Translations under genes and position numbers: made by a program
Shown: positions 5,761-51,141 of the stretch, piece by piece
Layout: the number at the start of each line of letters is the position of its first letter
How positions within the stretch are numbered: the stretch's first letter is position 1
From: a virus
Taxonomy: Duplodnaviria > Caudoviricetes
Direction: 5' to 3' (one strand)
IMG/VR virus record: IMGVR_UViG_3300022745_000041
Span: 1 to 54,422 of that record
DNA: 54,422 bases
The notes under the pieces: generated by a model
The model's input: the letters and a program-made list of their open reading frames with translations, nothing else
Told to the model about the DNA's origin: nothing
The model's database searches: none

Positions 5761-6649
5761 GAACGGCCTCGCTTTCAGTGTCGTCAAATAGTGTTTTCGC
5801 TTTCGTCTGGTTCTCTGCGACACTGCGCAGGTTCTTTTCGGCGGTCTTCACGTACTCATCTTTGAGTTCGCACCCGTGGAAACATCTCCCGAGCTTCAAA
5901 GCCATATAACCCTCTGATCCGATGCCAGTGAACGGCGAGAACACTAGCTCGCCCGGATTGCTGTAGAGGCGAATGCACCGCTCAATCACGTCGAGCTGAA
6001 GAGGGCAGATGTGCTTCGTATCGTCCTCGCCTTTCGTGCCTCTCACGTTGAGCGTGTTTGTTTCTCGAATATCCATCCAAGCCGCTTCCGCCCAATCAAT
6101 CCACTGATTGCGACTCACTTGTCCAGACGCATCAATCGGAGTTGCGTTCTCGCCCGGCGCACGGAACTTGATGATGTAGTCAGCGATTGTTCCCCGTTGT
6201 TTCGCTCGATCTGATTCTAGTCCCGCGAACTGCAACTCTCGTGACCGTGTCCTGATCGCTTGGGCCTGTGGGTTCTTGCGAATGCACCAATCATATTCGT
6301 AGATCAACCCAGCCCGTTCTCCGATCCGAATGTTGATTCCCCTGAAGTCACACAAGCCAACTCCGCCTGATCGCTTCATCCTTGGTATCTGGCAGACGTG
6401 GACGCAAGCAACTCGCCCTGGCTTCAGCACGCGTGCCAACGCTTTGTAAAAAAACGAAAGATGCACTTTCGCTTCTGTGCCACATGTGTCTGTGTTTCCG
6501 ATGTCCGCCTCGCTTGACGTGTAGGCATATAGCGACGGGAACGGCGGAGAAAAGACCGCCATATCTACGCTGTGTGGAATCATTTCCTCCGCCATGTGCG
6601 GAATGCAGTCTCCGTGGTGAATCGACCAATTAGTAACACTCGCAACCAT
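5750..6649 (-). CDS. N4-cytosine/N6-adenine DNA methyltransferase (beta class)
   Basis: Catalytic FSPPF precedes HICP and the SAM-binding FSPFTGIGS motif. Confidence 0.9.
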   Translation of the reverse strand: MVASVTNWSIHHGDCIPHMAEEMIPHSVDMAVFSPPFPSLYAYTSSEADIGNTDTCGTEAKVHLSFFYKALARVLKPGRVACVHVCQIPRMKRSGGVGLCDFRGINIRIGERAGLIYEYDWCIRKNPQAQAIRTRSRELQFAGLESDRAKQRGTIADYIIKFRAPGENATPIDASGQVSRNQWIDWAEAAWMDIRETNTLNVRGTKGEDDTKHICPLQLDVIERCIRLYSNPGELVFSPFTGIGSEGYMALKLGRCFHGCELKDEYVKTAEKNLRSVAENQTKAKTLFDDTESEAVHVA

Positions 6650-6708
6650 AATACTACCCCTTCCTTGAGTTAAAACGACAAATCCACACCGCCAATAGTA
6701 TTAAACAC

Positions 6709-7356
6709 TTAATACGCCTCAGCCTCTTCCCTGGTCACGAAGAAGTGAATTCCTCCAGTGCATTCAATCATGAAATCGTCACACCACTGATCGCAATGAA
6801 CCGTTTCACCGACGCGATATTCTGTCTTGCCGTCGTGTTGACTAATTCCGACTTCGCCGCCAAAGAGTTCCAGCACCTCCACGAACTCAGCGCGACACTT
6901 CCGGCCAAATGCGTTTGATCGCTTGGCGGCCTCTGGTACTTTCAGCTTGACGATCACGCCGTCGTTGCATTTTTTCCAACCGATCACGGAACCCTCTCGC
7001 GGTGCAACGCGAGTTTTCGCGATGGCCAGCTCCACGCCTACCGCCCCGCGTAGGTTCGCATCGAGTAAGTCCGCATCGAGTAAGTTCGCCCCGCATAAGT
7101 CCGCCCCGCATAAGTCCGCCCCGCGTAAGTCCGCATCGAGTAAGTTCGCCCCGCATAAGTCCGCCCCGCGTAAGTTCGCCCCGTGTAAGTTCGCCCCGCA
7201 TAAGTCCGCCCCGCGTAAGTTCGCCCCGTGTAAGTTCGCCCCGCGTAAGTCGGCCCCGCGTAAGTCCGCATCGCATAAGTTCGCCCGAATTCCCGTCGTA
7301 ATTCCTCGCAACCACTCCAGATGTTTTTGTAACACTTCCTTCAAATCAATAACCAT
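6709..7356 (-). CDS. Pentapeptide-repeat protein with DUF5758-like C-terminal domain
   Basis: 16 A(D/N)Lxx repeats, then GWKK...KCRAE...CTGGIHFF. Start MVIDL at 7356 with an AAGGAG RBS. Confidence 0.9.
7045..7284 (-). repeat. 15-bp tandem repeat x16 encoding the pentapeptide repeats
   Basis: Units such as GCGAACTTACGCGGG and GCGGACTTATGCGGG. Confidence 0.95.
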
Positions 7357-24750: not shown

Positions 24751-27700
24751 TTATACCCCAGCCGAACTAATGGCGCGCAGTCTAGCAGAATTATCTTCTC
24801 GTGCGAACTGCGCTGCCGTGTTATTGATATGACCTGTGATCTGAGCCACTACGTCATGCAGTGCAACATGCCGATTCGCTTGGTCGGTGACTAGCTTCGT
24901 GAGCGATCCCAGCGCTGCGACAACTTCCGCGTTCGCTTGTGCCTGAGCGTTAGCCATTTTGGCCATCGCGGACTCTGCGTTTTTCAGTGCTGCCGCCGAG
25001 GGGTCTTGTCCGCTCGGCGTCCGTTTAGTATCCGCTACACGATCAACATCTTGCTGGCCAGTGATCTCGGCCCGCTTCTCAGTTCTAGCCGTAACAACAA
25101 CTTCACGAGGTTTCGTCAGGTCATCAAGCTCCGCTTTTGCGTCCGCGTCGTCGATCTCGACCGGCATTGCGATCGTATCACAGCCACCGGCTCCGTTGAG
25201 TGCTTCGGGTTGCTGTGGTTGCGGGTCGGGTTGATTGTCTTCACCGAACAACACCGGTTCACGCTTGCGAACCAACGGTTGATTGTCGTCGAACAGCGGT
25301 TGCAACGGTTTCGGCAATTTCGGGCCGACAGGACGCCTACGAATCTCGGCAATTTCTTGCTCAGCCTTACGCATCCTGTGAATTAAAGCCGCCATCTCTT
25401 TGCCGTTATTTGGCAGCGGAATATCGTTTTGCTCCGCGTACTGAATGGCTTTGTCTTCGGCGTCAATCGGGTCGGCTTCTGGCTCGATTTCAACCGGCTT
25501 GGCTGGTTGCTCAAGTTTTTCTTTCGCTTTACGGAAGTCGATCGCGTCCCGATCTTGGTGTTGCCTTCGGTTCGCGTCGCCTTCCGCTTGTCGGTCAGCT
25601 TTTCGGTTCTCTACATCTTGCTGCTTGGCCCGTGCGGCATCGCGACGACGTTGCGCCACCTCGGCGGCATCACGAGGCGGATTAAGGTCATTAAGCCGCT
25701 TCTCGGCATCTGCTTTCTCGCGGTCGGCGTCCGCTTTCTGCTGAGCCATTAACCGCAATGCCTGCGCGGCCTGTGGATCAATTTGGCCACGGCGTTCGGC
25801 ATCATCAACAGCACGCTGCGCAATGCGGTTCCTGGCGTCTGCAAGTTGCCCGCCAGCTTCGCCGCGTTGTTTGTCTTGCTGGAATTTATCAAACGCATTC
25901 CGCCGAACGTCTTTGACGTCTTCGGGCTTCACGTCACGCCCGGCTTTCTTCTCGGCATCGCGAAAATTCTTTTCTGCGTCGTCTTGGACCTGCCTTGCGG
26001 CGTTTCGCTCGATGTCCTTTGGCTTCACGTTCTCGACAAGTTTTTCGCCAATCGCTGCCATGCGAGGGTCAGCTTTGAGCGCTGCTTGAAGCCTCGCGAT
26101 TCTGTCGGCCTCTTTTTGTTCCGCGAGCCGCTTTTCAACTGCGTCAGCGTCGAGCAATGCTTTCTCGCGAGCTTTACCGACCGCTTGTTCTGCCGTGATT
26201 CGCAATTGTCGTAATCGCTCGACATCTTCCACCGCTTGCCGCTGTTGTCGCGTCCGATTCTCAATCGCCTGTTTTTGCAAGTCAGCTTCTGCCTTCAGCC
26301 GCTCTTGCGTGGCTGCCTGCCATGCTGCCTGTGTCTCCTTGCGTGCTGCCACGTCTTTAGCGGTTACTCCAGCGTCGGCCTTAGCGTCCGCGTCTCTCGC
26401 GATTTGTTCACGTTTTTTAGCTTCACTCAGTGCGGCTTGCTTGTCGTCCATCAACCGTTGATCAAGGCTGGCCAGTTTCTCTGCCTGCGATTTTTGCAAT
26501 GCTTCTTGCTCAGCGATTGATTGTCGTCGCGTGGCAGCCTCGGTCTCGATTTGTGTCATCACGGCTGCGTTGTAATCATCGCGAGCTTTCTTCTTTTGCT
26601 CGTCTGTCAAGGCCGTGTTTGATTGCGCAGCATCAGCGACAAACTTCGCGACCTCAACCGCTCGATTGGCGTGTTCGTTGAGCCTCTCACGGTTGAGTTC
26701 TGCATTACGGCGATCTTGCTCAGCTTGCGGGTCATCGGTTCCTTTTGTGATACGTGATCGCTCTTGCTCGATTGACAGAATCTCTTGGAGCAAACCAGCC
26801 TGCCTGCGAAATTCGGTGTTTTGCTCACGTTGCTTCGTGAGCGATATATCAACCGCTTGTACGTTTTCAGTAATTAGGTTTTTGTGATCTTGTTCCACTT
26901 GACGTCGATCATCTGCGATGCGTTTTTTTTCGCGGTCAAGTTCCGCCTCTTGTTTAGGTGCCGATCGTTGCATGACCTGCAATCGTTGTCGCGCTTCAGC
27001 AAGCTCTCGCTCGGCATCCTGAATTTCCGCGATAGTTCTGAGCCGTTTTCGATGTTGTTCCTCATATTGGATTTGTTCAGCCAATGCGGTTGCTTTATTT
27101 TTTGCAACGATTGAATCAACCTGCGCCTGCGCTGCCTTCAGTACCTCGATTTCCTTTTCGCGGTTCTTCTTTAATCGTTCCGGATCGGCCCCATCCGCAA
27201 TTGCTTCCTTCGGCACAAAGTTGCCAATGTTCTTTCCGCCGTTTTCGATATCGAACTCAATATCGCTAATGAGTTTTTTGATCTCAGATAGCGATGTGAT
27301 TTCTTTCAAATGTTGCTGCTGTTTGCTGACCGCTCTCGCGGCATCGGCATCATCTAACGACTCAAAGGCTTTCTTTCGTTCCGCTACTTTTTCAATCTGA
27401 TCGGCAAGCTGTTTTGCTTCCGCTGTTGCAGCAAAAAAGTAATCCCCCATCTTTGCGAAAACGCCGAAACGTTGCTCAAGTTGATTCAGTCCCACTGCCA
27501 GAATAGAAACAACGCCAGCAAGACCAGCGCCGAGTCCCAGCGATTGCAAAAGCCCAGGGATGTTGTTCACGATCCCGCGTAGGCCATACTGTAGGTCGTC
27601 GGCGGCATAAGCAAGCTGCATTATACCTTGGCCGGATAGCCCGCCCGCCTTATTGATCTGACCACCAGCCGTATTCATCGCCGATCCGGCGCGATGCGCC

Positions 27701-28878
27701 GCCGCACCGACGGCATCTAAGCTGGCCACTGATTGTTGATTCGCCTTAATGAGCCGCTGAGCCTCTTGGCCAGCCTGTCCCTCTTGGTTTGCCAGATATC
27801 CAAATTCATGAGCAGCACGAAGAGCGGAACGGGCAACGTTCTCTTCCTCGGTCGCAAGATGCCGAAAATCAGCCGCCACGGAATCAAATCCGTCTGCCTG
27901 AGCAAGCAGGCTGGCGATTTGCGATCGTGCCGCCTCGGAATTGTTTCCCGTCTTGCGGATCGCTTCAGCGGCCTCGCGCGCCTTGCTTGCTAGATGATCG
28001 TTATTGTCGGCTGATGCCCAAAACTCAGTCGCTTTCGTTGCCGCCGTGACAGCCTCTTCTGATACCTTGCGAAATTCGCTAAGCGTCTTTTCAACGCCAG
28101 CCGCTTCGATAGTCGCGGTCGCTTTGACGGCGTCAATCTCTTTGATTTTGGCTTCAAGTATCTCGACCGCATTCGAGCCGCGCAGAACGTCTTTCGTGAT
28201 GTTGTCGGCAATCAAACCGAGCGGTGCCGCGTTCGGATTGATGTCCGCCGCGTCACGTAATGAGTCTGCAAACTGGAGCGCCGCGACTTGATCCTTACGA
28301 AGCACGTCTTCGATCCGCTTCAGCATCGCGAGTTCAGATTCGCTGAATCCTTTCGCGTGATCAGCCGCAAGCGATCGCATCGCCTCGTGAAGAATCTCGG
28401 TTGATTTCGCGAGCTTTGCCGTAAGCGCATCGGCTTGCTTCAGTGCCGCTTGCCGCGCGGTGTCGTCAACGGGCGGCACTGCTGCCGTGTCAATCGGCTG
28501 AACATCATTGACAACCTTTTGCACAACCGGCGGAGGCGTGTCGCGAATGATTGCTTGAGCCGCTTCCGCCGCTTGTTGTTGCCCTGGCGTTAGCGGCTTG
28601 GTCGCGTTGTCGAGAAACTTCGCTTCGGCGGCTTTGTGGCGTTGCTGGAGTTGCTCAAACTCAGCCGCCGTTTTCGCGAACTTCTCATGTTGAATATCGA
28701 GAAAGATTGCCGCGTTGTCACGTGCGAACTTCTCTTCAATCGCACGTTGTTGCGCCAGCATCTCTTGATGCTTTTGGTCAAGCGTCTGTTTTGTGGACTC
28801 CGCACCGGCCACAACACTGGCGTTGCCCGCTTGCGTTTGATCGTCAACACCAACTTGAATATCGACACGATTAGCCAT
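24751..28878 (-). CDS. Tape measure protein
   Basis: 1375 aa, Ala/Gln/Glu/Lys-rich helical. Contains QLAYAADDLQYG..GIVNNIP plus a Gly/Leu hydrophobic segment typical of TMPs. Confidence 0.85.
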   Translation of the reverse strand: MANRVDIQVGVDDQTQAGNASVVAGAESTKQTLDQKHQEMLAQQRAIEEKFARDNAAIFLDIQHEKFAKTAAEFEQLQQRHKAAEAKFLDNATKPLTPGQQQAAEAAQAIIRDTPPPVVQKVVNDVQPIDTAAVPPVDDTARQAALKQADALTAKLAKSTEILHEAMRSLAADHAKGFSESELAMLKRIEDVLRKDQVAALQFADSLRDAADINPNAAPLGLIADNITKDVLRGSNAVEILEAKIKEIDAVKATATIEAAGVEKTLSEFRKVSEEAVTAATKATEFWASADNNDHLASKAREAAEAIRKTGNNSEAARSQIASLLAQADGFDSVAADFRHLATEEENVARSALRAAHEFGYLANQEGQAGQEAQRLIKANQQSVASLDAVGAAAHRAGSAMNTAGGQINKAGGLSGQGIMQLAYAADDLQYGLRGIVNNIPGLLQSLGLGAGLAGVVSILAVGLNQLEQRFGVFAKMGDYFFAATAEAKQLADQIEKVAERKKAFESLDDADAARAVSKQQQHLKEITSLSEIKKLISDIEFDIENGGKNIGNFVPKEAIADGADPERLKKNREKEIEVLKAAQAQVDSIVAKNKATALAEQIQYEEQHRKRLRTIAEIQDAERELAEARQRLQVMQRSAPKQEAELDREKKRIADDRRQVEQDHKNLITENVQAVDISLTKQREQNTEFRRQAGLLQEILSIEQERSRITKGTDDPQAEQDRRNAELNRERLNEHANRAVEVAKFVADAAQSNTALTDEQKKKARDDYNAAVMTQIETEAATRRQSIAEQEALQKSQAEKLASLDQRLMDDKQAALSEAKKREQIARDADAKADAGVTAKDVAARKETQAAWQAATQERLKAEADLQKQAIENRTRQQRQAVEDVERLRQLRITAEQAVGKAREKALLDADAVEKRLAEQKEADRIARLQAALKADPRMAAIGEKLVENVKPKDIERNAARQVQDDAEKNFRDAEKKAGRDVKPEDVKDVRRNAFDKFQQDKQRGEAGGQLADARNRIAQRAVDDAERRGQIDPQAAQALRLMAQQKADADREKADAEKRLNDLNPPRDAAEVAQRRRDAARAKQQDVENRKADRQAEGDANRRQHQDRDAIDFRKAKEKLEQPAKPVEIEPEADPIDAEDKAIQYAEQNDIPLPNNGKEMAALIHRMRKAEQEIAEIRRRPVGPKLPKPLQPLFDDNQPLVRKREPVLFGEDNQPDPQPQQPEALNGAGGCDTIAMPVEIDDADAKAELDDLTKPREVVVTARTEKRAEITGQQDVDRVADTKRTPSGQDPSAAALKNAESAMAKMANAQAQANAEVVAALGSLTKLVTDQANRHVALHDVVAQITGHINNTAAQFAREDNSARLRAISSAGV

Positions 28879-38899: not shown

Positions 38900-39811
38900 T
38901 TATATCAGACTCCACGTTTGACCGACAGCCACCGTGGAAGAATTTGGCTTGAGGCAACTCATTGTGATCGGTTGCCAGTTGTAATCGTCGGGCGTCACGG
39001 AATCGTTGGCGTCGATAATTGCGAGGCGATTGAACGACAGCACAACTTGCGTTGCGTTTCCGCTCGCGCCTGTTCCCGCGTGCAATCCAGAGAGAGTCAG
39101 GCTCGCGGTCTTATGTGAGATTGATGATAGCCGTTGCAGAACCGCCATAGCACTGGATGACTTGAGCGGCTTAATCGTTAGTGATTGCTGACAGCCAGTA
39201 GATCGCAATGACGACGGCTCATAACCTGCGTTGTACTTCAGCGAAAGGTTATGTCGGATCGTATAGCTAAATGACTCGATCGGCAGTGACGAGCCGTCAA
39301 ACGTCAGCGCAACATCCGCGAAGAGAAACTCAAGACATTGGCCGCGATTGTCCGGCAACGCGGTACTGAGCACGCTGGCCAGTTCTTTTTTACCAACAAG
39401 CGTCAGCGATAGCGTCACGCCGTTCGGATCGCCGGAAAGCGTTGCTTCATCCACCCGAAGCCCTGCCCACCGTGAGGCACTAACGTTGTCGATCCAATGC
39501 AGTGATTTACTAGACCCGTCGGCGGTTTCGGGAGAACTGAACGCCCACTCAATCAGATATTGCGCGAACGACTGACTAGCCGATGGTGCCCAAAATCCAT
39601 AGAGCGGACACGAGATTGTCCCACCGATCTTCCGCCTGACCTTCTCCGCGTATTTCGGCTGCCGGATGCCCGCGTAACCTTTCGCTTCGCGAGTCTCGAC
39701 ATCGGCCTTCAGTGCAAAATTCGTCAGCGGAATATATCGGTCAACGTCGCCGCCGACCGTCCCCCAGGACGATTCGGATTGAAAGACTGCGAATGATTTT
39801 GCGGATGTCAT
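38900..39811 (-). CDS. Tail tube-like protein, paralog 2
   Basis: ESSWGT, GTISCPLYG, GLRVDEATLSG, LPDNR...EFLFAD and KPLKS; colinear with 39877..40839. Confidence 0.75.
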   Translation of the reverse strand: MTSAKSFAVFQSESSWGTVGGDVDRYIPLTNFALKADVETREAKGYAGIRQPKYAEKVRRKIGGTISCPLYGFWAPSASQSFAQYLIEWAFSSPETADGSSKSLHWIDNVSASRWAGLRVDEATLSGDPNGVTLSLTLVGKKELASVLSTALPDNRGQCLEFLFADVALTFDGSSLPIESFSYTIRHNLSLKYNAGYEPSSLRSTGCQQSLTIKPLKSSSAMAVLQRLSSISHKTASLTLSGLHAGTGASGNATQVVLSFNRLAIIDANDSVTPDDYNWQPITMSCLKPNSSTVAVGQTWSLI

Positions 39812-39825
39812 TTGCTTACCAATGC

Positions 39826-39861
39826 AAAAGCCCGCCACATCCTTCGATTTGGCGGGCTTTT
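39826..39861. terminator. Bidirectional intrinsic terminator between the two tail-tube genes
   Basis: AAAAGCCCGCCA-N12-TGGCGGGCTTTT. Confidence 0.75.
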
Positions 39862-39876
39862 GTCGTTAGTTATTTG

Positions 39877-40839
39877 CTACACCGTATCCCAAACAGGAAC
39901 GCACGTATTATCGCTCGTGTCAGGCTTCAGGAGGTGCATCTTGATCGCCTGGAAGCCGAAATCGTCCAGACCGATATCGTCGCTTGCTTCGTCCAACACT
40001 GACCGGGCAAAAGTGAACTGGCCAGTGGTGTAGGTGTCGGCGGCAGTCCCGCTGTGCAAGCCTTTGATAGTCAGGATGCTTTCAAGTTCAGTATTGTCCT
40101 GCAACCGCAAGTATGCGTCGTAGGTAGCGGCAGTCTTGAGCGGCTTGAACGACAGCGTCTGCTTGTTGTACTGAGCCGAAACTTGATTCGGTCGGTTGCC
40201 GTTGAGAAACAGCGGCTTGATGCCGTAGTCCACTTCCCAACTGAATTCCGACATATCGACAGCCGAACCACCGATACTCAATACCGTATCGGAGAACAGC
40301 ATTTCTAGCAGACCATTTCGATCGTCAGGCAACGCTGACGCTGAGCCTTGCAAGACGATCTGCGTTTTGCCAATACAGTCGAGCGTCAACTCCAGGAAAC
40401 CATCGCTTGCAGAGCCTTTCAGGGTCGCTTTATTGACTCGCAACCCGCTGTCTTCGTGGCCTGTGACAGTCGTGCCGCTGCCGTCCTTGTGGATGTCAAA
40501 CGCGCGGAACGACGGGCGAGGGTCGAGCGTTTCTGGCGTATCGGTCACGAGGTCAAGAAAGTATTGAGCGATCGACACCGCAGGACTCGACAAGTAGGCA
40601 CCGTAGAGCGGCATCACGATCGAACCGCTCACAAGGCTATTCGGCGATTGGCTATGGTGAGACTGGCCACGACCAGCAATCGGTCGATGCTGTGCGGAAT
40701 TGCGCTTCAACGCAACGCCGTAACTCTTGGTCGGAGCGTGAACCAAAACAGGAGTCGAAGGGCGAGTGCCCCAAGCGGCACCAGTGCCGGTTTCTTTCTC
40801 AAAATACTGATAACGCTTAGCGCCTAAGACGTGAGACAT
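39877..40839 (-). CDS. Major tail tube protein, paralog 1
   Basis: E...AWGT.P, GSIVMPLYG, GLRVNKATLKG and LELTLDCIGK; follows the tail-terminator-like gene. Confidence 0.78.
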   Translation of the reverse strand: MSHVLGAKRYQYFEKETGTGAAWGTRPSTPVLVHAPTKSYGVALKRNSAQHRPIAGRGQSHHSQSPNSLVSGSIVMPLYGAYLSSPAVSIAQYFLDLVTDTPETLDPRPSFRAFDIHKDGSGTTVTGHEDSGLRVNKATLKGSASDGFLELTLDCIGKTQIVLQGSASALPDDRNGLLEMLFSDTVLSIGGSAVDMSEFSWEVDYGIKPLFLNGNRPNQVSAQYNKQTLSFKPLKTAATYDAYLRLQDNTELESILTIKGLHSGTAADTYTTGQFTFARSVLDEASDDIGLDDFGFQAIKMHLLKPDTSDNTCVPVWDTV

Positions 40840-43803: not shown

Positions 43804-44772
43804 CTACACACCGGCACGAGGCATCAGCTTGACGTCGATACCCTTAGCCTTGAGTCGTGCTTCGATCACGGCATCGGATTCAATAGCGTTGCCTTTGTCG
43901 CCCACGCTTGGCTCGTTAGCGTTTGCCAAGCCTTGCACACCTGATTCACTGGCCAACATAATCAGACCATCAAGCGGAGCGAGAATCGCGAGGTTGTACG
44001 CAACGACGGAACCAAGTTCCTCGTATTGCTTGAGCGTTGCGGCGTTGATCTTCTTGGCGTCAAACAAGCCCTTGAGCTTGCCGCTCCAAGCGTCCTTCGC
44101 TTCATTGGCTTTCTTCGCGACCGTTTCGGCCTTGAACGCTGTGAATTCATTCGACAGCGTGATGATCGTTTCGGCTAACGTCTTGTTAGTAGCCGCAATG
44201 CCTTCAAGAGTCGCCTTCAGCTCAGGTGTCATGTTGTCCTCATCCTCTAGGGATTCATTCGAGAGTGTCAGAAACGGACCTTGGCCCGTTACCACTGGTT
44301 GATCGACAATCGCGACGTGAAGTAGCGCGAGTGCGTATTTTGTTTTGTCACCTGCGGTCCAATCGGGCTGAACGCCAACCGAGACTTGATGGGCAGGGTT
44401 TTCGAGTTGCTTGGCTTGGTCTGCCGTCATGTATGACGAGCAATAGAGCACGCCGTCTTGCGTGAAGACTTGGTCGATCGGTGCGATTGCGTTCTTGGCT
44501 TCGACGGCGTGTTGACCACCGGGGCCGCCGTCAGGACGTGAACCCCAGTAGAGGTTGCACGGAACGCCATTGGCCTTCATGGCCGCAAAGTCGTTAGACA
44601 ACGTCTTGAGCGTGTCTTCAGTGACAACCCAATCCCGTTGACCAGCTTTCCATGTACCAACACGCAACACGTCTTTCACCACTCGCACACCGCGAGACGA
44701 ATCAAGCGGCGTCAGTCCGGATAGCACCGGCTGAGCAACATTTGTCGATTGAGCGAGGGTGTAGAAGATCAA
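43804..44772 (-). CDS. Prohead protease / scaffold (Mu gpI-like)
   Basis: VLRVGTW, QH, VSVGV and LLHVAIVDQPVVTGQGPF, then a helical scaffold. Likely TTG start at 44772 after AAGGAAGG. Confidence 0.8.
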   Translation of the reverse strand: MIFYTLAQSTNVAQPVLSGLTPLDSSRGVRVVKDVLRVGTWKAGQRDWVVTEDTLKTLSNDFAAMKANGVPCNLYWGSRPDGGPGGQHAVEAKNAIAPIDQVFTQDGVLYCSSYMTADQAKQLENPAHQVSVGVQPDWTAGDKTKYALALLHVAIVDQPVVTGQGPFLTLSNESLEDEDNMTPELKATLEGIAATNKTLAETIITLSNEFTAFKAETVAKKANEAKDAWSGKLKGLFDAKKINAATLKQYEELGSVVAYNLAILAPLDGLIMLASESGVQGLANANEPSVGDKGNAIESDAVIEARLKAKGIDVKLMPRAGV

Positions 44773-44880
44773 GAGAAAGCCTTCCTTGGCGGTTATGTAT
44801 TGCATCATGCAATAAGCCAAAGGTCTAAGTCCTGATTGCCAGTGTCAAGCGCTCGTCAAAAATAATTTTGGATTGGTTGC

Positions 44881-45155: not shown

Positions 45156-45345
45156 GAAGAAAAGCTCCGCTGCTCAAGCCCTCTCGGCACTACGCTGGAA
45201 GGGCAAAACAGCGGCACAAAAGAAGGCACATAGCGAGGCGATGAATGCCGCTCGCATGGCTAAGACAACACCGGAGCAACGGGTTGCAGCGGCGAAGAAA
45301 GCGGTTGCGGCGCGGATCGCGAAGCGGAATAAAGAAGGGCGTTAA
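45148..45345 (+). CDS. Small highly basic Lys/Ala-rich protein (moron gene 2)
   Basis: AAGGAG upstream; MAKKKSSAAQALSALRWKGKTAAQKK...; internal T(A/P)xQ repeat. Confidence 0.7.
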   Translation: MAKKKSSAAQALSALRWKGKTAAQKKAHSEAMNAARMAKTTPEQRVAAAKKAVAARIAKRNKEGR

Positions 45346-46391
45346 GCCCCGTACTTCGCCAGCGTCTCTGGCGGCAACTGATCCACCTGCACCGCCTGAA
45401 GCTCTTTCCGCTGCCGCTTCGCTTCCGTGTACGGAGTGATCGAACAGCGGCAACTGTAGTCGTTCAGCGCCCGCTTGGCGACTGCATAGGCTTCGCTGCC
45501 AACCTCAAACAACAGGCCATCGAGTGGCCTGTGGGTTGCGCGAGTACGGGTGTCATGAGCGGAATGAAATAGCACATACGGAAACTGCGTCTTAACGACC
45601 GGCTTCTCAAGCGTCATCGTTGAACCGTGAATAAACGCTTGATGCGTCGAAGTCCGGAAGGCGTTTTGCAGTTCTGGCTTCGTCGCGTCAATTGTGTCTT
45701 TGATTCGCTTATGGAATTCTGCAAACGATTCTCCGGCTGGGAACCCAATCGCGATCTCATCACGCAAGCGTGTCACCGCTTCCAGCGATTTCCAGCGCGG
45801 CAACTGTTCGCCGCGTGCTTGCTTCTGGATTTCATCCGCGCTGTAAACGTCACGATCCATCAACCAGCGTGCCGCCGTCTCAACCCACGGGAATCGGTTC
45901 TTTTGCAGCGGCCCCAGCGCATCGAGCGTGATGAGCTTCGGTTCGCGAGACTCGCCCCACACCGCGACCGCACCAGCGATCCAGCTTGATAACTCGGATT
46001 GAGCCACCAGCTTGTCAAGTTTTTCCGCAACGAAACCGAGTGGCTGGCCAGCAACTAACGCATCTTCGATCTCTTGATAGAGTCCGTTGAGGTATCGAAT
46101 TGTTTCGTCCGCGAGTTCGTCAGCGTTAGGCGTTTCTGGCGGTGTTGGTTCGCTGTGCGGGCTGTGTGGGCGGTTGATGTTCAGCGTGGGGATGGCGTCT
46201 ATAGAGAGCGATAGTGGCCCTGTCGGTCCAATATCCCAAGCGCCGCTCCCCTTCTCGCGTAACTCGGCAAACGACCAATCGCCCCATAGTTCACCAGGCT
46301 GAACTACGTGTGACCAATCGCCTATAATTCCACCTTGCTCAATACGGGCGCGAAGCGTGACTTGGTTTTCGCTGACGGTTGCATAAATCAA
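45342..46391 (-). CDS. MuF / SPP1 gp7-like minor head protein with an extra N-terminal domain
   Basis: GESFAEF, FRTSTHQAF, FPYVLFHSAHDTRTRATHRPLDG and DYSCRCSITP motifs. Confidence 0.85.
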   Translation of the reverse strand: MIYATVSENQVTLRARIEQGGIIGDWSHVVQPGELWGDWSFAELREKGSGAWDIGPTGPLSLSIDAIPTLNINRPHSPHSEPTPPETPNADELADETIRYLNGLYQEIEDALVAGQPLGFVAEKLDKLVAQSELSSWIAGAVAVWGESREPKLITLDALGPLQKNRFPWVETAARWLMDRDVYSADEIQKQARGEQLPRWKSLEAVTRLRDEIAIGFPAGESFAEFHKRIKDTIDATKPELQNAFRTSTHQAFIHGSTMTLEKPVVKTQFPYVLFHSAHDTRTRATHRPLDGLLFEVGSEAYAVAKRALNDYSCRCSITPYTEAKRQRKELQAVQVDQLPPETLAKYGA

Positions 46392-46678
46392 GCTGCATCC
46401 TCCTTCGGTTCCGCCGCTGCATGTCGCGATAACTTGACGAGCGTTGCCATTGTAGCCGCGTTGCGCAAGTGGTGTTCATACCACATTCGGTCGCCAGCGT
46501 TTTTCGATGCACGCTTCCGCCACGTCTCTGCGGTTGCGAGTAGCTCGTTGAGTATTGCATTAACCATGTTTTCCGAACATCTATCGACTAAATGTCGAAT
46601 CAAACGGCTCTCAACGTAATGCTCTGCCGATCGGTCTTCGATTGCTGCCACGAGCTTGATTGCGTCAATTGCTTTCAT
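46388..46678 (-). CDS. Hypothetical helical protein (candidate inhibitor/immunity protein)
   Basis: 96 aa with ATGA overlaps on both sides; function inferred from position only. Confidence 0.55.
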   Translation of the reverse strand: MKAIDAIKLVAAIEDRSAEHYVESRLIRHLVDRCSENMVNAILNELLATAETWRKRASKNAGDRMWYEHHLRNAATMATLVKLSRHAAAEPKEDAA

Positions 46679-47472
46679 CGTTTTCCCCGTCTTGGCTTCT
46701 GCTCTGCGGTCAGTTCTTTAATCTTCTTAACCGTGTTCGGGAAGGATATCGAGAACTCTTGAGCCGACATAGCTCCTCCACCATGTAAGGACGCAAAGCC
46801 TTCTGCGAACGCCTCGCTGTAACCGGCGTCTGAGGCGTGGAATCGACCGCTCACGGCATTGCGTGCCGGTTGAATGAAGTAACTCATTTTCCCGGCTTCT
46901 CCGTTTAGCGAATAGCCATCGGCCTCAAATTTACTTCCGCTGCCGTGCATGATCGCCAACAAATCCGCTCGATACGCGGTTCTGAAATCGTCTCGCTGCG
47001 ATATGCGATGGTCTAGGAAATTATCATCAACCGCATGACCGATTTCGTGTCGCATCACCCCGGCTGGGTCGCGTGTTTTTGTGCGTGCTGTCGATGGCCC
47101 CTCGTGCTCGGCAACAAAGGCTTGTTTAGTGTGCGGAATATACGCCGCCCCGACTTCGTGTAACGATCCGCTCCAATAACCACGAGGCTTATCGTTCATG
47201 TCGTAATGAGCTGAGAGCACATCGGACGCATCTTTTGCCGCAATCGTCTTCACGCCTTTCGACTTCAAGACGGCAGCTATATGCGGCGGAATTGACTTCA
47301 CGGCCTGGCTAGTTGCCGCAACGAATTGAGGGTTAGGGCTACCAGCACTCTCAACTCCGTGAATCGAACTGGCCGCCCGCTTCACACCCGCCTTGCTCAC
47401 CCCTCGCCGCGCATACTGATTACTCCCAATACCACCGCCCTTGCCTGTGATGCGTTGCCCCGGCTTTGTCAC
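46675..47472 (-). CDS. ATLF/anthrax-lethal-factor-like zinc metalloprotease domain protein
   Basis: KPRGY, MRHEIGHAVD, DFRTAY..D, SYF and SEAFAEGFA motifs; basic Gly-rich N-terminus with GSNQY. Confidence 0.8.
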   Translation of the reverse strand: MTKPGQRITGKGGGIGSNQYARRGVSKAGVKRAASSIHGVESAGSPNPQFVAATSQAVKSIPPHIAAVLKSKGVKTIAAKDASDVLSAHYDMNDKPRGYWSGSLHEVGAAYIPHTKQAFVAEHEGPSTARTKTRDPAGVMRHEIGHAVDDNFLDHRISQRDDFRTAYRADLLAIMHGSGSKFEADGYSLNGEAGKMSYFIQPARNAVSGRFHASDAGYSEAFAEGFASLHGGGAMSAQEFSISFPNTVKKIKELTAEQKPRRGKR

Positions 47473-48917
47473 GACATTACGTCGAGCACCGACCGCAGCG
47501 CGTCCGACTTTTTTTTTACAGCTAGCTCGTAAGGCTCATTCGCTTGGAACAACGGATCAGCGTTCGGACCATACTGCTGTTGTGTCTGCTCGCGCATGGC
47601 CTGCTTATCCGCCTTTACCTGCGCAAACGCAGCATCAAGCCGCTCAACATAATCACGGGCCAGTGGAACGCCAGCATTGGCCAGTATGGTCGCAACGTCG
47701 ATCGCTCCTGACTCTAGCAGCGGCCCCCATTGCGGCATTGCCATGATAGCTTTAACCGTCTCGACCATCAGGCCATCAGTGATGCGTGACGTTGGCGTTA
47801 CCGTGATTTTTGGAGGCTTGCCAGGGTAGTTCGCAGGCCCGTAGACACGATTGACGATCGCTTCAAATTGGCTCGTCAGTTGCGAGCCAAGCGAATCGCA
47901 CTTACTGAGAACAACAAACATACGCACCGTCTGTGATGCGTATGAACCTGTTTCAGTGTCCATAGTAACCGATTCGTGAACGCCGAACGCCCGCGACATC
48001 TTTGCGTCAATCAGATTGTCGATAATCTCCAACGGCTTCGCATCCAGCGATCTCGCTTCGTGCGTGATGTCGATCTGATACTTGCCCTCCATGCCCGGTG
48101 TGCTGTGTGCATCGTTGGGCAGGATCGTCAGACCGCCTGCGGTCTTGTTGGCATGGTATTGCGCTGCGATCAGCTTGTGGTTGTTGACCACTCGGCCAGT
48201 TTCATCAACCGCAGTTGCCGGAGCGTGAATTGTCGGACCATCAACGGCCCAACGCGCAACGAACACCTGGATGAGTTGATCTGTCTCTTTGCGTCGCTTG
48301 CGGACCTCAGCCGGAGCGCCTAAGAATAGCGAACGACCATGCGGTTCAAGCGGTGTGGCACTAATCGCAAACCAGCACGATTGCTCTGGCGGTATCACGA
48401 AATCTGAGCCGTCAATCGTGACTCGAATGCCACCGAACTGGCCAGAACTGTCGAGCACCAATTCCGTCGCTCGTGCTCCGTTGATGTGCTTCGGTAGCTG
48501 TTTGAACTGCTTAATGACCGTGATCGGAACGCCGCTAACCTCATCGTTTTCAATGACTAATTCAAACGGCAATCCTCCCCACGTGAACACGCCGTGTTCC
48601 GGGTCGCAGAACTTTTCGAGAGTCTCAAGCCAAAGACGATTGAGGTCGTCTTCGATCGCCTCGGCGGTTGCGTCACCTTCCGGCGCGTCAACGTTTATCG
48701 TGACATCACCACGTTTGACGCTCGATAGCAACACGTCCTGCGTAATGACCACCATCGGGTCTTTGCGCATGTCGCAGACAAGCTCCGCGAGGTCGCGAAT
48801 CGGCTCTGGCTGTACAACTCCGGCGATAACCGGATCAACGGCTTTTGCCGCATCGGCGCTAGCGGTTTGCTTGCTGCCAAACAGTCTACGGGTTGCGTCT
48901 CGGAGTTCTGCGAGCAT
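47469..48917 (-). CDS. Portal protein (DUF935/Mu gp29-like)
   Basis: Position after terminase; MRKDP, PHGRSLF, IDAKMSRA and TGSYASQ motifs. Confidence 0.85.
   Translation of the reverse strand: MLAELRDATRRLFGSKQTASADAAKAVDPVIAGVVQPEPIRDLAELVCDMRKDPMVVITQDVLLSSVKRGDVTINVDAPEGDATAEAIEDDLNRLWLETLEKFCDPEHGVFTWGGLPFELVIENDEVSGVPITVIKQFKQLPKHINGARATELVLDSSGQFGGIRVTIDGSDFVIPPEQSCWFAISATPLEPHGRSLFLGAPAEVRKRRKETDQLIQVFVARWAVDGPTIHAPATAVDETGRVVNNHKLIAAQYHANKTAGGLTILPNDAHSTPGMEGKYQIDITHEARSLDAKPLEIIDNLIDAKMSRAFGVHESVTMDTETGSYASQTVRMFVVLSKCDSLGSQLTSQFEAIVNRVYGPANYPGKPPKITVTPTSRITDGLMVETVKAIMAMPQWGPLLESGAIDVATILANAGVPLARDYVERLDAAFAQVKADKQAMREQTQQQYGPNADPLFQANEPYELAVKKKSDALRSVLDVMS
47508..47517 (-). promoter_or_regulatory. 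Slippery site (A9 run containing A_AAA_AAG) near the portal 3' end
   Basis: GTA AAA AAA AAG in the portal frame; the -1 frame is open into ORF 46675..47472. Confidence 0.6.
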
Positions 48918-49782: not shown

Positions 49783-51141
49783 TCATGCTCCTGTGTGCCA
49801 CGTGACCGGCCCTGACTGCATCACCAGCTTATTGTAAGCACCGCTTGCAGCGTCGGCTTGATCATCATGAACTCCGCTCCAACACTGCGTGAGTTCGTCT
49901 ATGAAAGCACGATTCCACGGTGCCCGCAATAGGCGGACTTGCTTTTGCTCAGTCCTGGCCTGTAGCGGACGTGCGCGAATGCTTTTCTCTTTGCTCATCG
50001 TCTCTACACGACAGCCATACTTGGCCCACCGCATGACGTTAATTTCTCCGACCGTCTTTCCAGCCCCTCCCCCTTCACGCTCAATCCATTGTTCGCATTT
50101 CAGGCCATGCTGATCGAAGTCCCGTTTCATCGTGGCTTCAATCTGAGCGTCGCGAGTTGATGCCGTCCACTGCCCGCGAACCACGTCCAGGACGTAAACA
50201 AACCCGTCTCCGCCGTCAGCCATCAACACTCCGACCGTGTAGTCACCATCTTTGCTGCTTGCCGTGTCCCAATACCGCACAACCTTCGCAATCTTGGCGG
50301 GTTCGATATCAACAATCTGGTTAATGTCGTCATGCTTGAAGAACAGCCCGCCTTCCGGAATCGGGTTCCCCATATACATGGCGGACCAAAAGTAACTACC
50401 GAGCAACGCCTTTGTTCTCAGTAGCTTATCGAATGAATGAAGCTCCGGACACAACGCCTCGCCGCGTTCGTTAATTGCTGGCAAGAGCAACTTACGAACA
50501 GGAATCCCTTGATCCTTGCAGACCTCATGCAACTGGCCAGTGAGGTCATTCACATGCCAGCGTGTCTGCATGATGATGACCGCTGAATCTTGTTGCAGTC
50601 GCGTATATGCCGACGATAGGAACTGATTCCAGACCGTCTCGCGAACCACTGCTGAACTGGCTTGCTCGTGATTGCTATATGGATCATCGAAGATGAATAG
50701 GTTTGCCCCCTTGCCTGTCGTTGACGAACTTCCACCTGTGCTCATCTCGCCGCGATGCCCCTCCACACCCCACCAGTCTGACCGCTTCAGTGATTTACTA
50801 ACACGTAGCCCTGTCGTTTCTGACATCGACGCGAAGACGTTGCGAGCTTTCGCGCCCCAGCTTGCCGCGAAGTCGCTTGCGTAACTGTTGAGGATGACCC
50901 TCCTGTCTGGCCAAAGACTCATGAGCCAAGCGGGCGTATATTTCGACATCAATTCGCTTTTGCCGTGTTGTGGCGGAACAGATACCGTCAGAATTCGGCA
51001 ATCGTCAACGCCCATGACGGTGTCAATGATTGCGTTATTGATCGCTTGCAAGTGCGGATACGGTTTCCACTGGCCACCGCTTGCGGCTTGAGCGTAACCA
51101 GCGGGCGTTGCTATTCGGCGGACGGATTCGAGGTCAAGCAT
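49783..51141 (-). CDS. terL: Terminase large subunit
   Basis: VPPQHGKS (Walker A), IFDDP (Walker B), MQTRWH; nuclease YWDTA...DYTVG and HDDQADA. Confidence 0.95.
   Translation of the reverse strand: MLDLESVRRIATPAGYAQAASGGQWKPYPHLQAINNAIIDTVMGVDDCRILTVSVPPQHGKSELMSKYTPAWLMSLWPDRRVILNSYASDFAASWGAKARNVFASMSETTGLRVSKSLKRSDWWGVEGHRGEMSTGGSSSTTGKGANLFIFDDPYSNHEQASSAVVRETVWNQFLSSAYTRLQQDSAVIIMQTRWHVNDLTGQLHEVCKDQGIPVRKLLLPAINERGEALCPELHSFDKLLRTKALLGSYFWSAMYMGNPIPEGGLFFKHDDINQIVDIEPAKIAKVVRYWDTASSKDGDYTVGVLMADGGDGFVYVLDVVRGQWTASTRDAQIEATMKRDFDQHGLKCEQWIEREGGGAGKTVGEINVMRWAKYGCRVETMSKEKSIRARPLQARTEQKQVRLLRAPWNRAFIDELTQCWSGVHDDQADAASGAYNKLVMQSGPVTWHTGA

Follow-up and report, generated by a model that had tools for sequence, protein, structure and literature searches.

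In the virus analyzed here, the portal protein gene carries near its 3' end a run of nine adenines (A9) that probably is a selected recoding site, giving rise to a minor form of the portal that continues through a linker into a predicted zinc peptidase (zincin) encoded in the -1 frame. The window, that is, the entire stretch of DNA that was analyzed, spans 54,422 nucleotides of a member of Caudoviricetes (Duplodnaviria; IMG/VR record IMGVR_UViG_3300022745_000041); the features discussed below are listed in Table 1.

Around positions 47519-47508 of the minus strand, the sequence reads gct GTA AAA AAA AAG tcg, which in the portal (0) frame encodes V467, K468, K469 and K470, with the portal stop codon 12 codons past K470, so that the run lies about 13 codons before the stop. 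As noted in an initial annotation of this DNA, A9 exceeds every other homopolymer of the window in length; four runs of at least 7 nucleotides were found (lengths 7, 7, 8 and 9). When the positions of these runs were compared with the gene list, the portal emerged as the single case of A_AAA_AAG at the X_XXY_YYZ phase among the predicted genes of the window. Translation bears out the further claim that the -1 frame is open from the A run into the ORF containing the HEIGH motif, with a predicted fusion of 747 aa: read from 47520, this frame begins CKKKVGRAAVGARRNV-VTKPGQ..., is free of stops down to 46675 and extends 263 aa past the portal stop, and the +1 frame is closed before the portal stop is reached. 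The -1 frame opens only at 47535, placing the A9 run at the 5' end of a 64-nt zone in which a shift would be productive. The GTG start codon of the cargo ORF at 47472 overlaps the portal stop as GTGA.

Table 1. Coordinates of the head-module features in the window
Feature	Position	Strand	Remarks
Large terminase	49783..51141	-	Pfam Terminase_6N and Terminase_6C
Portal protein, 482 aa	47469..48917	-	ORF; Mu gp29-like; between TerL and MuF
A9 run	47509..47517	-	With G47508 forms A_AAA_AAG, phase xxA AAA AAA AAG; proposed recoding site
Dual-coding overlap	47473..47507	-	0 frame, SDALRSVLDVMS and stop; -1 frame, VGRAAVGARRNV
Cargo ORF, 265 aa from GTG	46675..47472	-	Predicted M34-type zincin; folded domain, residues 41-256
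Linker motif GKGGGIGSNQYARRGVSKAG	47386..47445	-	Residues 10-29 of the -1 ORF; predicted disordered
Internal in-frame GTG, codon 30	47383..47385	-	GAGGGG..AAGGCGG upstream; duplex -8.0 kcal/mol vs -3.0 at GTG 47472
HEIGH motif (H142, E143, H146)	47035..47049	-	Zinc-binding/catalytic; invariant
96-aa ORF	46388..46678	-	Overlaps the zincin stop (ATGA); within the variable portal-MuF cassette
MuF-like head protein, 349 aa	45342..46391	-	Pfam Phage_Mu_F, E 3.8e-12; 42% identity with MuF of L001
Probable head maturation protease/scaffold, 338 aa	43804..44820	-	43% identical (E 1e-75) to an L001 ORF

The initial annotation had proposed looking among related phages for a conserved slippery site or for in-frame portal-ATLF fusions. 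A comparable site was found in a related locus, L001, in which the portal is 38% identical to that of the window and the head genes are syntenic (MuF and the protease are 42% and 43% identical, respectively). An independent A9 run (positions 6521-6529 of L001) occupies the same codon phase, 8 codons before the stop of the L001 portal, and the -1 frame stays open for 186 aa past that stop, through the next ORF, which encodes a different, 175-aa cargo. At both loci, a slippery heptamer is present in the correct 0-frame phase, namely, A_AAA_AAG in the window and A_AAA_AAA followed by AAC in L001. Thus, the A_AAA_AAG heptamer that had been singled out is indeed present in the window but is not a shared element, and what the two sequences have in common is the A9 run rather than the specific heptamer. 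Both loci also have what transcriptional slippage calls for, a coding-strand stretch of A or T that is about 9 nt or longer, and RNA polymerase slippage is no less plausible here than ribosomal frameshifting.

Chance alone would readily produce an A9 run at some place in the window (mean of 0.99 in dinucleotide shuffles; at least one in 51 of 100 shuffles); it is the place, phase and codon choice of this run that are unusual. GTA accounts for 95 of the 1083 valine codons in this phage, and the probability that VKKK is written as GTA AAA AAA AAG under its codon usage is about 1%. The probability that the SKKN of L001 is written as A9 is likewise about 1% under the codon usage of L001 itself, where 0.12 A9 runs are expected. 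Among 324 ORFs of at least 250 aa from the window and 72 loci, a homopolymer of at least 8 nucleotides within the last 60 codons is found in two, which are exactly the portals of the window and L001.

Another line of evidence comes from the linker. The motif GKG..G(S/T)NQY, which in the window is reached only through the -1 frame, is located in the portal frame in two homologs, P0007 and P0008, with 13 of 16 and 10 of 23 residues, respectively, identical between the window linker and these in-frame portal tails. The motif is present in 4 of the 161 proteins collected, every one from this portal lineage, and residues 1-36 of the zincin ORF are modeled with pLDDT <50. In P0007 (710 aa, 57% identical), portal, linker and cargo are joined in a single frame; the cargo of this fusion is the 175-aa domain found in L001, not the zincin. 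P0007 aligns to the -1 frame of L001 upstream of the ATG of the L001 cargo ORF (SERAKSEMAKAS vs SQRSKSEIAKAS), and the methionine encoded by that ATG is replaced by isoleucine in P0007 and by leucine in P0162. P0007 is known from one 5.4-kb contig and could be an assembly error. A protein search with the linker alone (residues 1-75 of P0010; candidates of 154-492 aa) retrieved only the window's own protein, and the C-terminal part of P0007 used as a query matched only P0162, so that the ORFs downstream of P0002-P0006 were not recovered.

The portal itself produces a match to the Pfam Portal_Mu profile that covers 320 of the 336 profile positions (E 8.7e-5) but at 22.4 bits falls below the cut-off of 23.9; PF06074 is precomputed for four of the eight portal homologs (P0002, P0003, P0004 and P0009). 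The gene occupies the position of a Mu-type portal: within a head module that also includes a Mu Gp36 adaptor, it lies after the large terminase and before MuF. Sequence search identified no relative of the portal with a solved structure. VKKK is kept in all seven close homologs in which the portal terminates (P0001-P0006 and P0163, from separate assemblies), with tails that are otherwise variable in length and sequence, stop codons 10 to 19 residues past KKK, and a conserved 0-frame tail pattern, ..S[VL]..[VL]M. At the DNA level, A9 is seen at two of two loci (the window and L001), and in-frame extensions occur in two homologs; the DNA analyzed covers these two family members, and in P0002-P0006 the VKKK peptide suggests that the A run may be conserved. 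In P0008, the residues aligned to KKK are acidic (LAVDDEDD), and the lysine patch is not conserved.

Searches with the portal protein or the portal alignment detected no close relatives in IMG/VR or GTDB genomes, P0008 as a query retrieved nothing from IMG/VR, and neither the portal nor the zincin had a tblastn match among GenBank phages. A portal HMM recognized this family in none of 71 IMG/VR loci found through the terminase, the nearest of which, L002, has an unrelated portal. No PHROG matched the portal, the zincin or the L001 cargo, and neither Pfam nor PHROG matched the 96-aa ORF. The L001 ORF that corresponds to the 338-aa protein of the window hits the PHROG "head maturation protease", whereas the window protein itself has no family match. 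By gene content, the slot between portal and MuF appears to be a variable cassette, with the zincin and the 96-aa ORF in the window and the 175-aa domain in L001 and P0007.

The start signals of the zincin ORF are compatible with more than one mode of expression. The absence of an evident Shine-Dalgarno (SD) sequence at GTG 47472, noted originally, is confirmed by the duplex energy (-3.0, compared with medians of -2.4 at random and -4.7 for genes) but does not discriminate, because 22 of the 57 predicted starts have an SD as weak or weaker. The internal GTG at codon 30 is a possible independent start, which would yield a product devoid of the linker motif. As for stimulators of frameshifting, the predicted fold of the 91 nt downstream is not more stable than shuffles (z of +1.44 in the window and -1.34 in L001), Rfam yielded no frameshift-element match, and no clear SD-like stimulator was seen upstream by eye. 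Strong stimulators are missing from many known frameshift sites, so their absence here only weakens the case for a -1 frameshift.

Given these signals, the zincin could be read as a gene of its own, expressed with no recoding through termination-reinitiation at the GTGA or by initiation at the internal GTG, with A9 just coding for a lysine patch. GTGA overlaps are a common arrangement for translational coupling, the internal GTG (47385) is preceded by a good SD-like sequence (Table 1), P0013, the closest relative of the zincin, has its start called at about the position of residue 39, an A9 run is likely to occur in the window by chance, and neither folding nor Rfam detected a stimulatory RNA structure. 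Nevertheless, we consider this reading unlikely: it does not explain why the A9 run of L001 has an equivalent location and phase, why the improbable codon choice was made in each genome, why just these two long ORFs of the 324 end with such a run, or why the linker, encoded before codon 30, resembles portal tails that are read in frame, and the acidic residues of P0008 show that a lysine patch is not conserved in that homolog. In any case, independent translation of the zincin and recoding are compatible, not mutually exclusive.

The model of the zincin (pLDDT 86) produced Foldseek matches with E from 5.7e-6 to 1e-3, TM of 0.5 by query and 0.6-0.73 by target, and sequence identity of 12-21%; of the top 36 PDB matches (E <= 0.001), those listed are chains of PPEP/Zmp1 and lethal factor. 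H142, E143, H146, Y198 and E220, that is, the HExxH motif along with the downstream Tyr and Glu, are invariant across 46 aligned relatives. Assignment of the cargo as an M34-type zincin with the PPEP/lethal factor fold and, by prediction, a zinc peptidase is supported at the fold level. The original label "ATLF-like" is supported for the fold; against the Pfam ATLF family, the zincin scores 16.3 bits (E 0.008), under the curated cut-off of 27.4; among 10 long relatives, one exceeds this cut-off (30.7 bits) and three more score from 22.3 to 26.0, below it. In five of the 10 long relatives scanned, the zincin is fused to MuF, in agreement with the statement in the initial annotation that MuF proteins carry such domains; in the window, MuF is a separate gene, with no zincin detected on it by Pfam. 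None of the best 150 zincin relatives has this portal in frame. The 175-aa cargo of L001 can be assigned, by its invariant D57, E98 and K100 only, to a putative PD-(D/E)xK type; its structure model, built from an alignment of 3 sequences, is poor (pLDDT 50).

Under the recoding scenario, most ribosomes would end at the 482-aa portal, and a minority of products would enter the -1 frame at A9, pass the disordered linker (GKG..GSNQY..) and continue into the M34-type peptidase, producing the 747-aa form. The shift could occur by ribosomal slippage on A_AAA_AAG or through addition of one A to the run by RNA polymerase, and the protein would be identical by either route. Because a portal ring consists of 12 subunits, a low shift rate would place a few copies of the cargo on the C-terminal face of the ring, which points inward. 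Cargo that stays attached to its portal subunit could exit the head only after cleavage, and a Mu-type head protease might trim the portal C-terminus, releasing the cargo within the head. In Mu, gp29 is found in the virion without its last 124 residues, which the authors ascribe to proteolytic cleavage (PMC11915804). The minor portal-metalloprotease fusion by a -1 shift that was originally envisaged thus gains strong comparative support from the A9 of L001, the P0007 fusion, the shared linker and the invariant VKKK, and is considered probable. More tentatively, we suggest that, in this freshwater Mu-like lineage, the poly-A site at the portal 3' end is a dosing device that puts a few copies of an exchangeable cassette (M34 zincin or D..ExK-type) on the inward-facing portal tail, to be freed by the head protease and ejected with the DNA; this would be the portal counterpart of MuF polymorphic toxins, with the stoichiometry set by slippage. 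The cargo might then be an injected effector that counters host defense or takes over the host, as the initial annotation proposed.

Recoding might also be real with the zincin being not an effector but a peptidase that serves morphogenesis or processes itself, cutting the portal tail or other proteins of the head during maturation. In favor of this possibility, none of the catalytic residues is lost, the C-terminus of the Mu portal is removed (PMC11915804), and the account of polyvalent proteins in PMC5512222 proposes autoproteolytic processing as a main function of the zincin domains of phage proteins that are packaged. However, L001 and P0007 carry the unrelated 175-aa domain in the same slot together with a separate head protease, which makes a core morphogenetic role of the cargo unlikely, and relatives of the zincin occupy the variable toxin/effector position on MuF; we regard this possibility as quite improbable.

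The length of the run, on which recoding depends, was also checked in contigs from independent sequencing runs; among the runs listed for this locus, none is an RNA run. A 249-nt Logan contig from run X3, built from 151-nt-class records, spans 47359-47607 with 0 differences and 0 gaps, so that the same A9 is seen outside the window's own assembly, at low coverage (word depth of 2-3 in independent runs). The contig from run X4 begins at 47505 and does not bridge A9, and run X5 contains a relative, about 92% identical, in a contig that ends at 47604, before the A run is reached. That A9 is an error in, or a recent mutation of, an in-frame portal-zincin fusion (A10), with one base lost in assembly or by a replication slip, seems very improbable even though homopolymers are error-prone, the coverage is low and the in-frame fusion P0007 exists in the family, given that A9 is the same in the window, the X3 contig and, independently, L001, and that the seven homologs all terminate shortly past KKK, with the 0-frame tail conserved as protein, which is unexpected for an accidental out-of-frame read.

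If recoding indeed occurs, the portal would join the few phage structural genes that rely on it, and a small, fixed dose of an enzyme would be packaged without a separate targeting signal. An enzyme on all 12 subunits may not fit easily under the portal crown, and a low-rate shift would solve such crowding. New injected effectors or counter-defense enzymes of uncultured phages could then be sought in the exchangeable slot that separates portal from MuF; gene callers split such genes, so that the long form is missed.

Several known systems resemble parts of this arrangement. The A_AAA_AAG heptamer of Escherichia coli dnaX reportedly directs -1 ribosomal frameshifting, Thermus thermophilus dnaX is said to rely on transcriptional slippage at A9, and the threshold for slippage is reportedly about 9 or more A or T. 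The portal site is like dnaX in the identical heptamer and phase (window), the A9 length (window and L001) and, as proposed, two products per gene in a set ratio; unlike dnaX, in which the shifted product is shorter, it would add a long extension with a new domain, with no SD-like or hairpin stimulator detected. Frameshifts are also said to occur in lambda G/GT and other tail chaperones, and T7 10A/10B is a phage structural-gene frameshift with a C-terminally extended minor form. In these cases as well, slippage close to the 3' end of the structural gene yields a sub-stoichiometric longer form that is in the virion or assists its assembly, but the added segment is structural or a chaperone, whereas here it would be an enzyme on the portal, with cargo differing between relatives. 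In MuF polymorphic toxins, the effector domain is fused at the MuF C-terminus. These toxins and the polyvalent proteins described in PMC5512222 share with the window an enzyme at the C-terminus of a head-internal protein encoded near the portal and MuF genes, as well as variable cargo, but they are plain fusions with cargo on every copy, whereas the window and L001 need a frame shift. The initial annotation knew of no frameshift loading an enzyme onto a portal; in-frame portal-enzyme fusions have been described (the portal fusions named in PMC5512222 carry PBECR, 2H and InPase domains, not zincin, although its supplementary architecture lists might include portal-zincin), and our literature search found no case of portal recoding nor of recoding joining an enzyme to a portal. 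Finally, the cargo shares with the M34 peptidases (PPEP-1/2/3 and the catalytic domain of lethal factor) the fold and the invariant H-E-x-x-H, Tyr and Glu, and differs from them in the low sequence identity of 12-21%, the sub-cut-off ATLF score, and the context of a phage head as opposed to a secreted toxin.

Near its 3′ end, the 482-aa portal ORF of the window reads GTA AAA AAA AAG (47519-47508), with the portal stop 12 codons past the last Lys. No other homopolymer in the window is as long as the nine A's (47509-47517). The -1 frame, open from 47535, reads ...CKKKVGRAAVGARRNVVTKPGQ... without a stop into the 265-aa zincin ORF, whose GTG start shares bases with the portal stop (GTGA); the predicted product of a shift at the run is 470 + 12 + 265 = 747 aa. 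The codons, homopolymer rank, open -1 frame and 747-aa sum all match the sequence, so that the initial annotation, which described a slippery portal run continuing into an HEXXH ORF, was exact. The window, a virus record, equals an entire contig; the head-module genes are all predicted on the minus strand, and farther on lie a gene for a Mu Gp36 adaptor and a pair of tail-tube genes.

Predicted genes of the head module in the window
Feature	Coordinates	Strand	Match or remark
Large terminase	49783-51141	-	Pfam Terminase_6N/6C
Three small ORFs	between large terminase and portal ORF	-	
Portal ORF, 482 aa	47469-48917	-	Pfam Portal_Mu near threshold (22.4 bits vs 23.9)
Zincin ORF, 265 aa	46675-47472	-	Pfam ATLF weak (16.3 bits vs 27.4)
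96-aa ORF	46388-46678	-	predicted ORF
MuF-like gene	45342-46391	-	Pfam Phage_Mu_F
338-aa ORF	43804-44820	-	next gene after MuF
Two neighbouring paralogous Phage_tube_2 genes (312 and 320 aa)	38900-39838, 39877-40839	-	

An A9 run anywhere in 54 kb is unremarkable (dinucleotide shuffles give 0.99 per window); what stands out is where the run lies, in which phase, and how its residues are encoded. Ahead of the portal stop, the -1 frame is open over 64 nt of a single strand, the productive zone for a shift. Among the Val codons of the phage, GTA is the least used (95 of 1083), and AAA-AAG is the rarest Lys-Lys pair in the predicted genes of the window (3 of 41, against 14 for AAG-AAA), a scarcity that would fit avoidance of this slippery pair in genes other than the portal. 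Given the codon usage of the phage, the probability of VKKK being written as A9 is ~1%, and a hand check of the window found no other A_AAA_AAG in the X_XXY_YYZ phase of any predicted gene. The second longest homopolymer, an A8 (26923-26930, minus strand), falls within the very long 1375-aa structural ORF at 24751-28878.

At the sensitivity used, searches of GenBank phages, IMG/VR and GTDB genomes recovered no relative of the portal; a protein collection yielded eight relatives. The ends of P0002-P0006 (463-485 aa, 59-67% identical to the window portal) and of P0163, from the cluster of P0006, resemble that of the window, with tails of variable length and sequence that comprise [A/T]VKKK, 10 to 19 residues with ..S[VL]..[VL]M. 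and a stop. VKKK is invariant among the terminating close homologues (7 of 7, the window counted). The 0-frame tail, too, is conserved at the protein level, an argument that the short portal form is real and functional. Within a single 90% cluster, P0006 and P0163 have nearly identical bodies and different C-terminal tails (...ETVKKKTVLKSVSQLMQ vs ...LAVKKKSDALAAVLDVMS), the latter resembling that of the window; the combination of a P0006 body with a window-like tail points to recombination around the portal-tail junction and suggests that, at the KKK site or close to it, the tail is exchanged, probably together with the cargo cassette.

P0007 (710 aa, 57% identical) does not stop but reads on in the same frame, through ...AKKKTTTSVSDDRPHGGKGSNQYATKGVSKAK..., to a further domain of ~175 aa; in P0008 (538 aa, 38% identical) the frame stays open into GRGGGKGTNQYGIKGKG and then closes. 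The start of the window's -1 ORF, ...GKGGGIGSNQYARRGVSKAG, contains a linker motif, GKG..G(S/T)NQY, for which pairwise alignment finds 13 of 16 residues shared with P0007 (E 5e-6) and 10 of 23 with P0008 (E 7e-5). Among 161 collected proteins, the motif occurs in four, two of which are the window's own ORF, and was not found in the other relatives of the zincin; being thus confined to this portal lineage, it belongs to the lineage's portal tail. As judged from the reading frames, it could be joined to the portal in the window only via the -1 frame.

The contig encoding P0008 (L001), the sole relative compared at the DNA level, is syntenic with the window (MuF genes 42% and next genes 43% identical), and its gene after MuF matches PHROG 'head maturation protease'. 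The L001 portal ends ...TCA AAA AAA AAC GGC GTG GCA AGC GGA TAG, with an A9 of its own (6521-6529) that shares the codon phase of the window's run and precedes the stop by 8 codons. From this A9, the -1 frame reads KKKRRGKRIEQQQPSERAKSEMAKASATRVD... directly into the next ORF (6584-7111, 175 aa), which is homologous to the P0007 C-terminal domain. L001 and P0007 are also similar upstream of the ATG of this ORF (SERAKSEMAKAS vs SQRSKSEIAKAS), and the start Met is replaced by Ile in P0007 and by Leu in P0162, another protein with this domain, so that at the protein level the -1 frame is conserved in the pre-ATG stretch. Chance predicts 0.12 A9 runs in L001, and from L001 codon usage SKKN would be written as A9 with a probability of ~1%. 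A search of relatives for a slippery site or an in-frame portal-ATLF fusion, proposed in the initial annotation, produced an A9 in L001 and, in P0007, an in-frame fusion with a different cargo. Among 324 control ORFs of at least 250 aa from the window and 72 loci, a set that includes spurious opposite-strand ORFs, only the window and L001 portals contained a homopolymer of at least 8 in the last 60 codons. The -1 extensions are 263 aa (window) and 186 aa (L001), and the +1 extensions -4 and 5 aa. Because the order of slip site and linker motif differs (site first in the window, motif first in L001), the common element is an A9 at the portal 3′ end, not one heptamer.

On the favoured reading, the A9 would yield a minority of -1 products, either through ribosomal slippage on A_AAA_AAG (A_AAA_AAA in L001) or through addition of one A to the run by RNA polymerase; the junction, ...AVKKK-VGR..., would be identical. 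Downstream folds in the window and L001 were not more stable than shuffles, and Rfam searches found no frameshift element; this negative result for a stimulatory structure suits slippage on a long run no less than it suits classical frameshifting. Alternatively, the zincin may be translated independently of the portal: the GTG at 47472, annotated at first as having no evident Shine-Dalgarno, is indeed poor in this respect (-3.0 kcal/mol), yet 22 of the 57 predicted starts are no better, and at codon 30 an internal GTG is preceded by a favourable SD-like sequence (-8.0 kcal/mol). Independent translation alone leaves unexplained the second A9 in L001, the codon choice at the A9 and the presence of the linker motif ahead of this internal GTG.

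The region was also compared with Logan contigs from four other sequencing runs. In X3, a run that shares year and habitat with the probable source and may belong to the same campaign, a 249-nt contig spans 47359-47607 without a difference or gap and therefore carries A9, in agreement with the run length given at the outset. An assembly error, with a true run of A10, is unlikely given this contig, the independent A9 in L001 and the conserved 0-frame tails. The contig from X4, starting at 47505, leaves the run uncovered. Contigs from X5, a microbial-mat metagenome from a different year, are ~92% identical to the portal gene (window 47604-48792; 35 differences in 425 nt, ending 87 nt short of the A run), indicating that a fairly close relative exists outside freshwater samples.

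Portal C-termini face the head interior. In a cryo-EM report on Mu, the last 124 residues of gp29 are missing from the virion, which is attributed to proteolysis (PMC11915804). A head-protease homologue is present in both the window and L001 phages, and cleavage of a slippage-derived fusion in its disordered linker would release the cargo inside the head.

The 265-aa ORF has 261 relatives at E <= 0.001 among 1.84 billion representatives, many with the domain at the C-terminus of a longer protein; Phage_Mu_F is N-terminal in 5 of the 10 long relatives scanned, in agreement with the early remark that MuF proteins carry such domains, and the window's portal family is absent from the best 150 of the 261. 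H142, E143, H146, Y198 and E220 are invariant across 46 aligned sequences. The AlphaFold model (pLDDT 86; residues 1-36 disordered, folded domain 41-256) matches the Pro-Pro endopeptidases PPEP-1/2/3 and the lethal factor catalytic domain (Foldseek E from 5.7e-6). The cargo is an M34-type zincin with an intact active site; the label 'ATLF-like' holds for the fold and not for the Pfam score, which is below the 27.4-bit cut-off. The ATG of the 96-aa ORF overlaps the zincin stop as ATGA. This ORF, for which no family was found in Pfam or PHROG and which is missing from the equivalent slot of L001, could be, judging by position, a zincin partner such as an inhibitor, immunity protein or chaperone. 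For the L001/P0007 cargo, Pfam and PHROG gave no match and the structure model was of unusable quality; a D...E-x-K pattern is invariant in three sequences. The third carrier, P0162 (242 aa, JGI), is called from GTG, with a long basic linker containing a EEEHPRGRAGQF motif ahead of the domain, and may represent the second part of a gene that is recoded or fused.

Recoding at A_AAA_AAG or A9 runs is classical, reportedly documented in the dnaX papers, and MuF toxins are said to have been described previously. Extended structural proteins made by phage frameshifts are well known for tail chaperones (PMC7911831 and PMC2628397), whereas in the window and L001 the extension would be a cargo domain on the portal. 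In-frame enzyme domains on the portal or MuF have been described (PBECR, 2H, InPase on portal) in PMC5512222, where 'frameshift' occurs 0 times, as have portal-MuF fusions (PMC7302621). Enzymes loaded on a portal by in-frame fusion are thus known. The initial remark concerned frameshifts, none of which was known to its author to load an enzyme on a portal, and no report of a recoded portal gene was found in the main text of the open-access literature. Unlike the portal fusions of PMC5512222, the portal-cargo join in the window and L001 would need a -1 shift. Recoding and portal-borne cargo being each known, the putative recoded join would bring the two together in one gene; its support comes from sequence comparisons within a small uncultured phage lineage.
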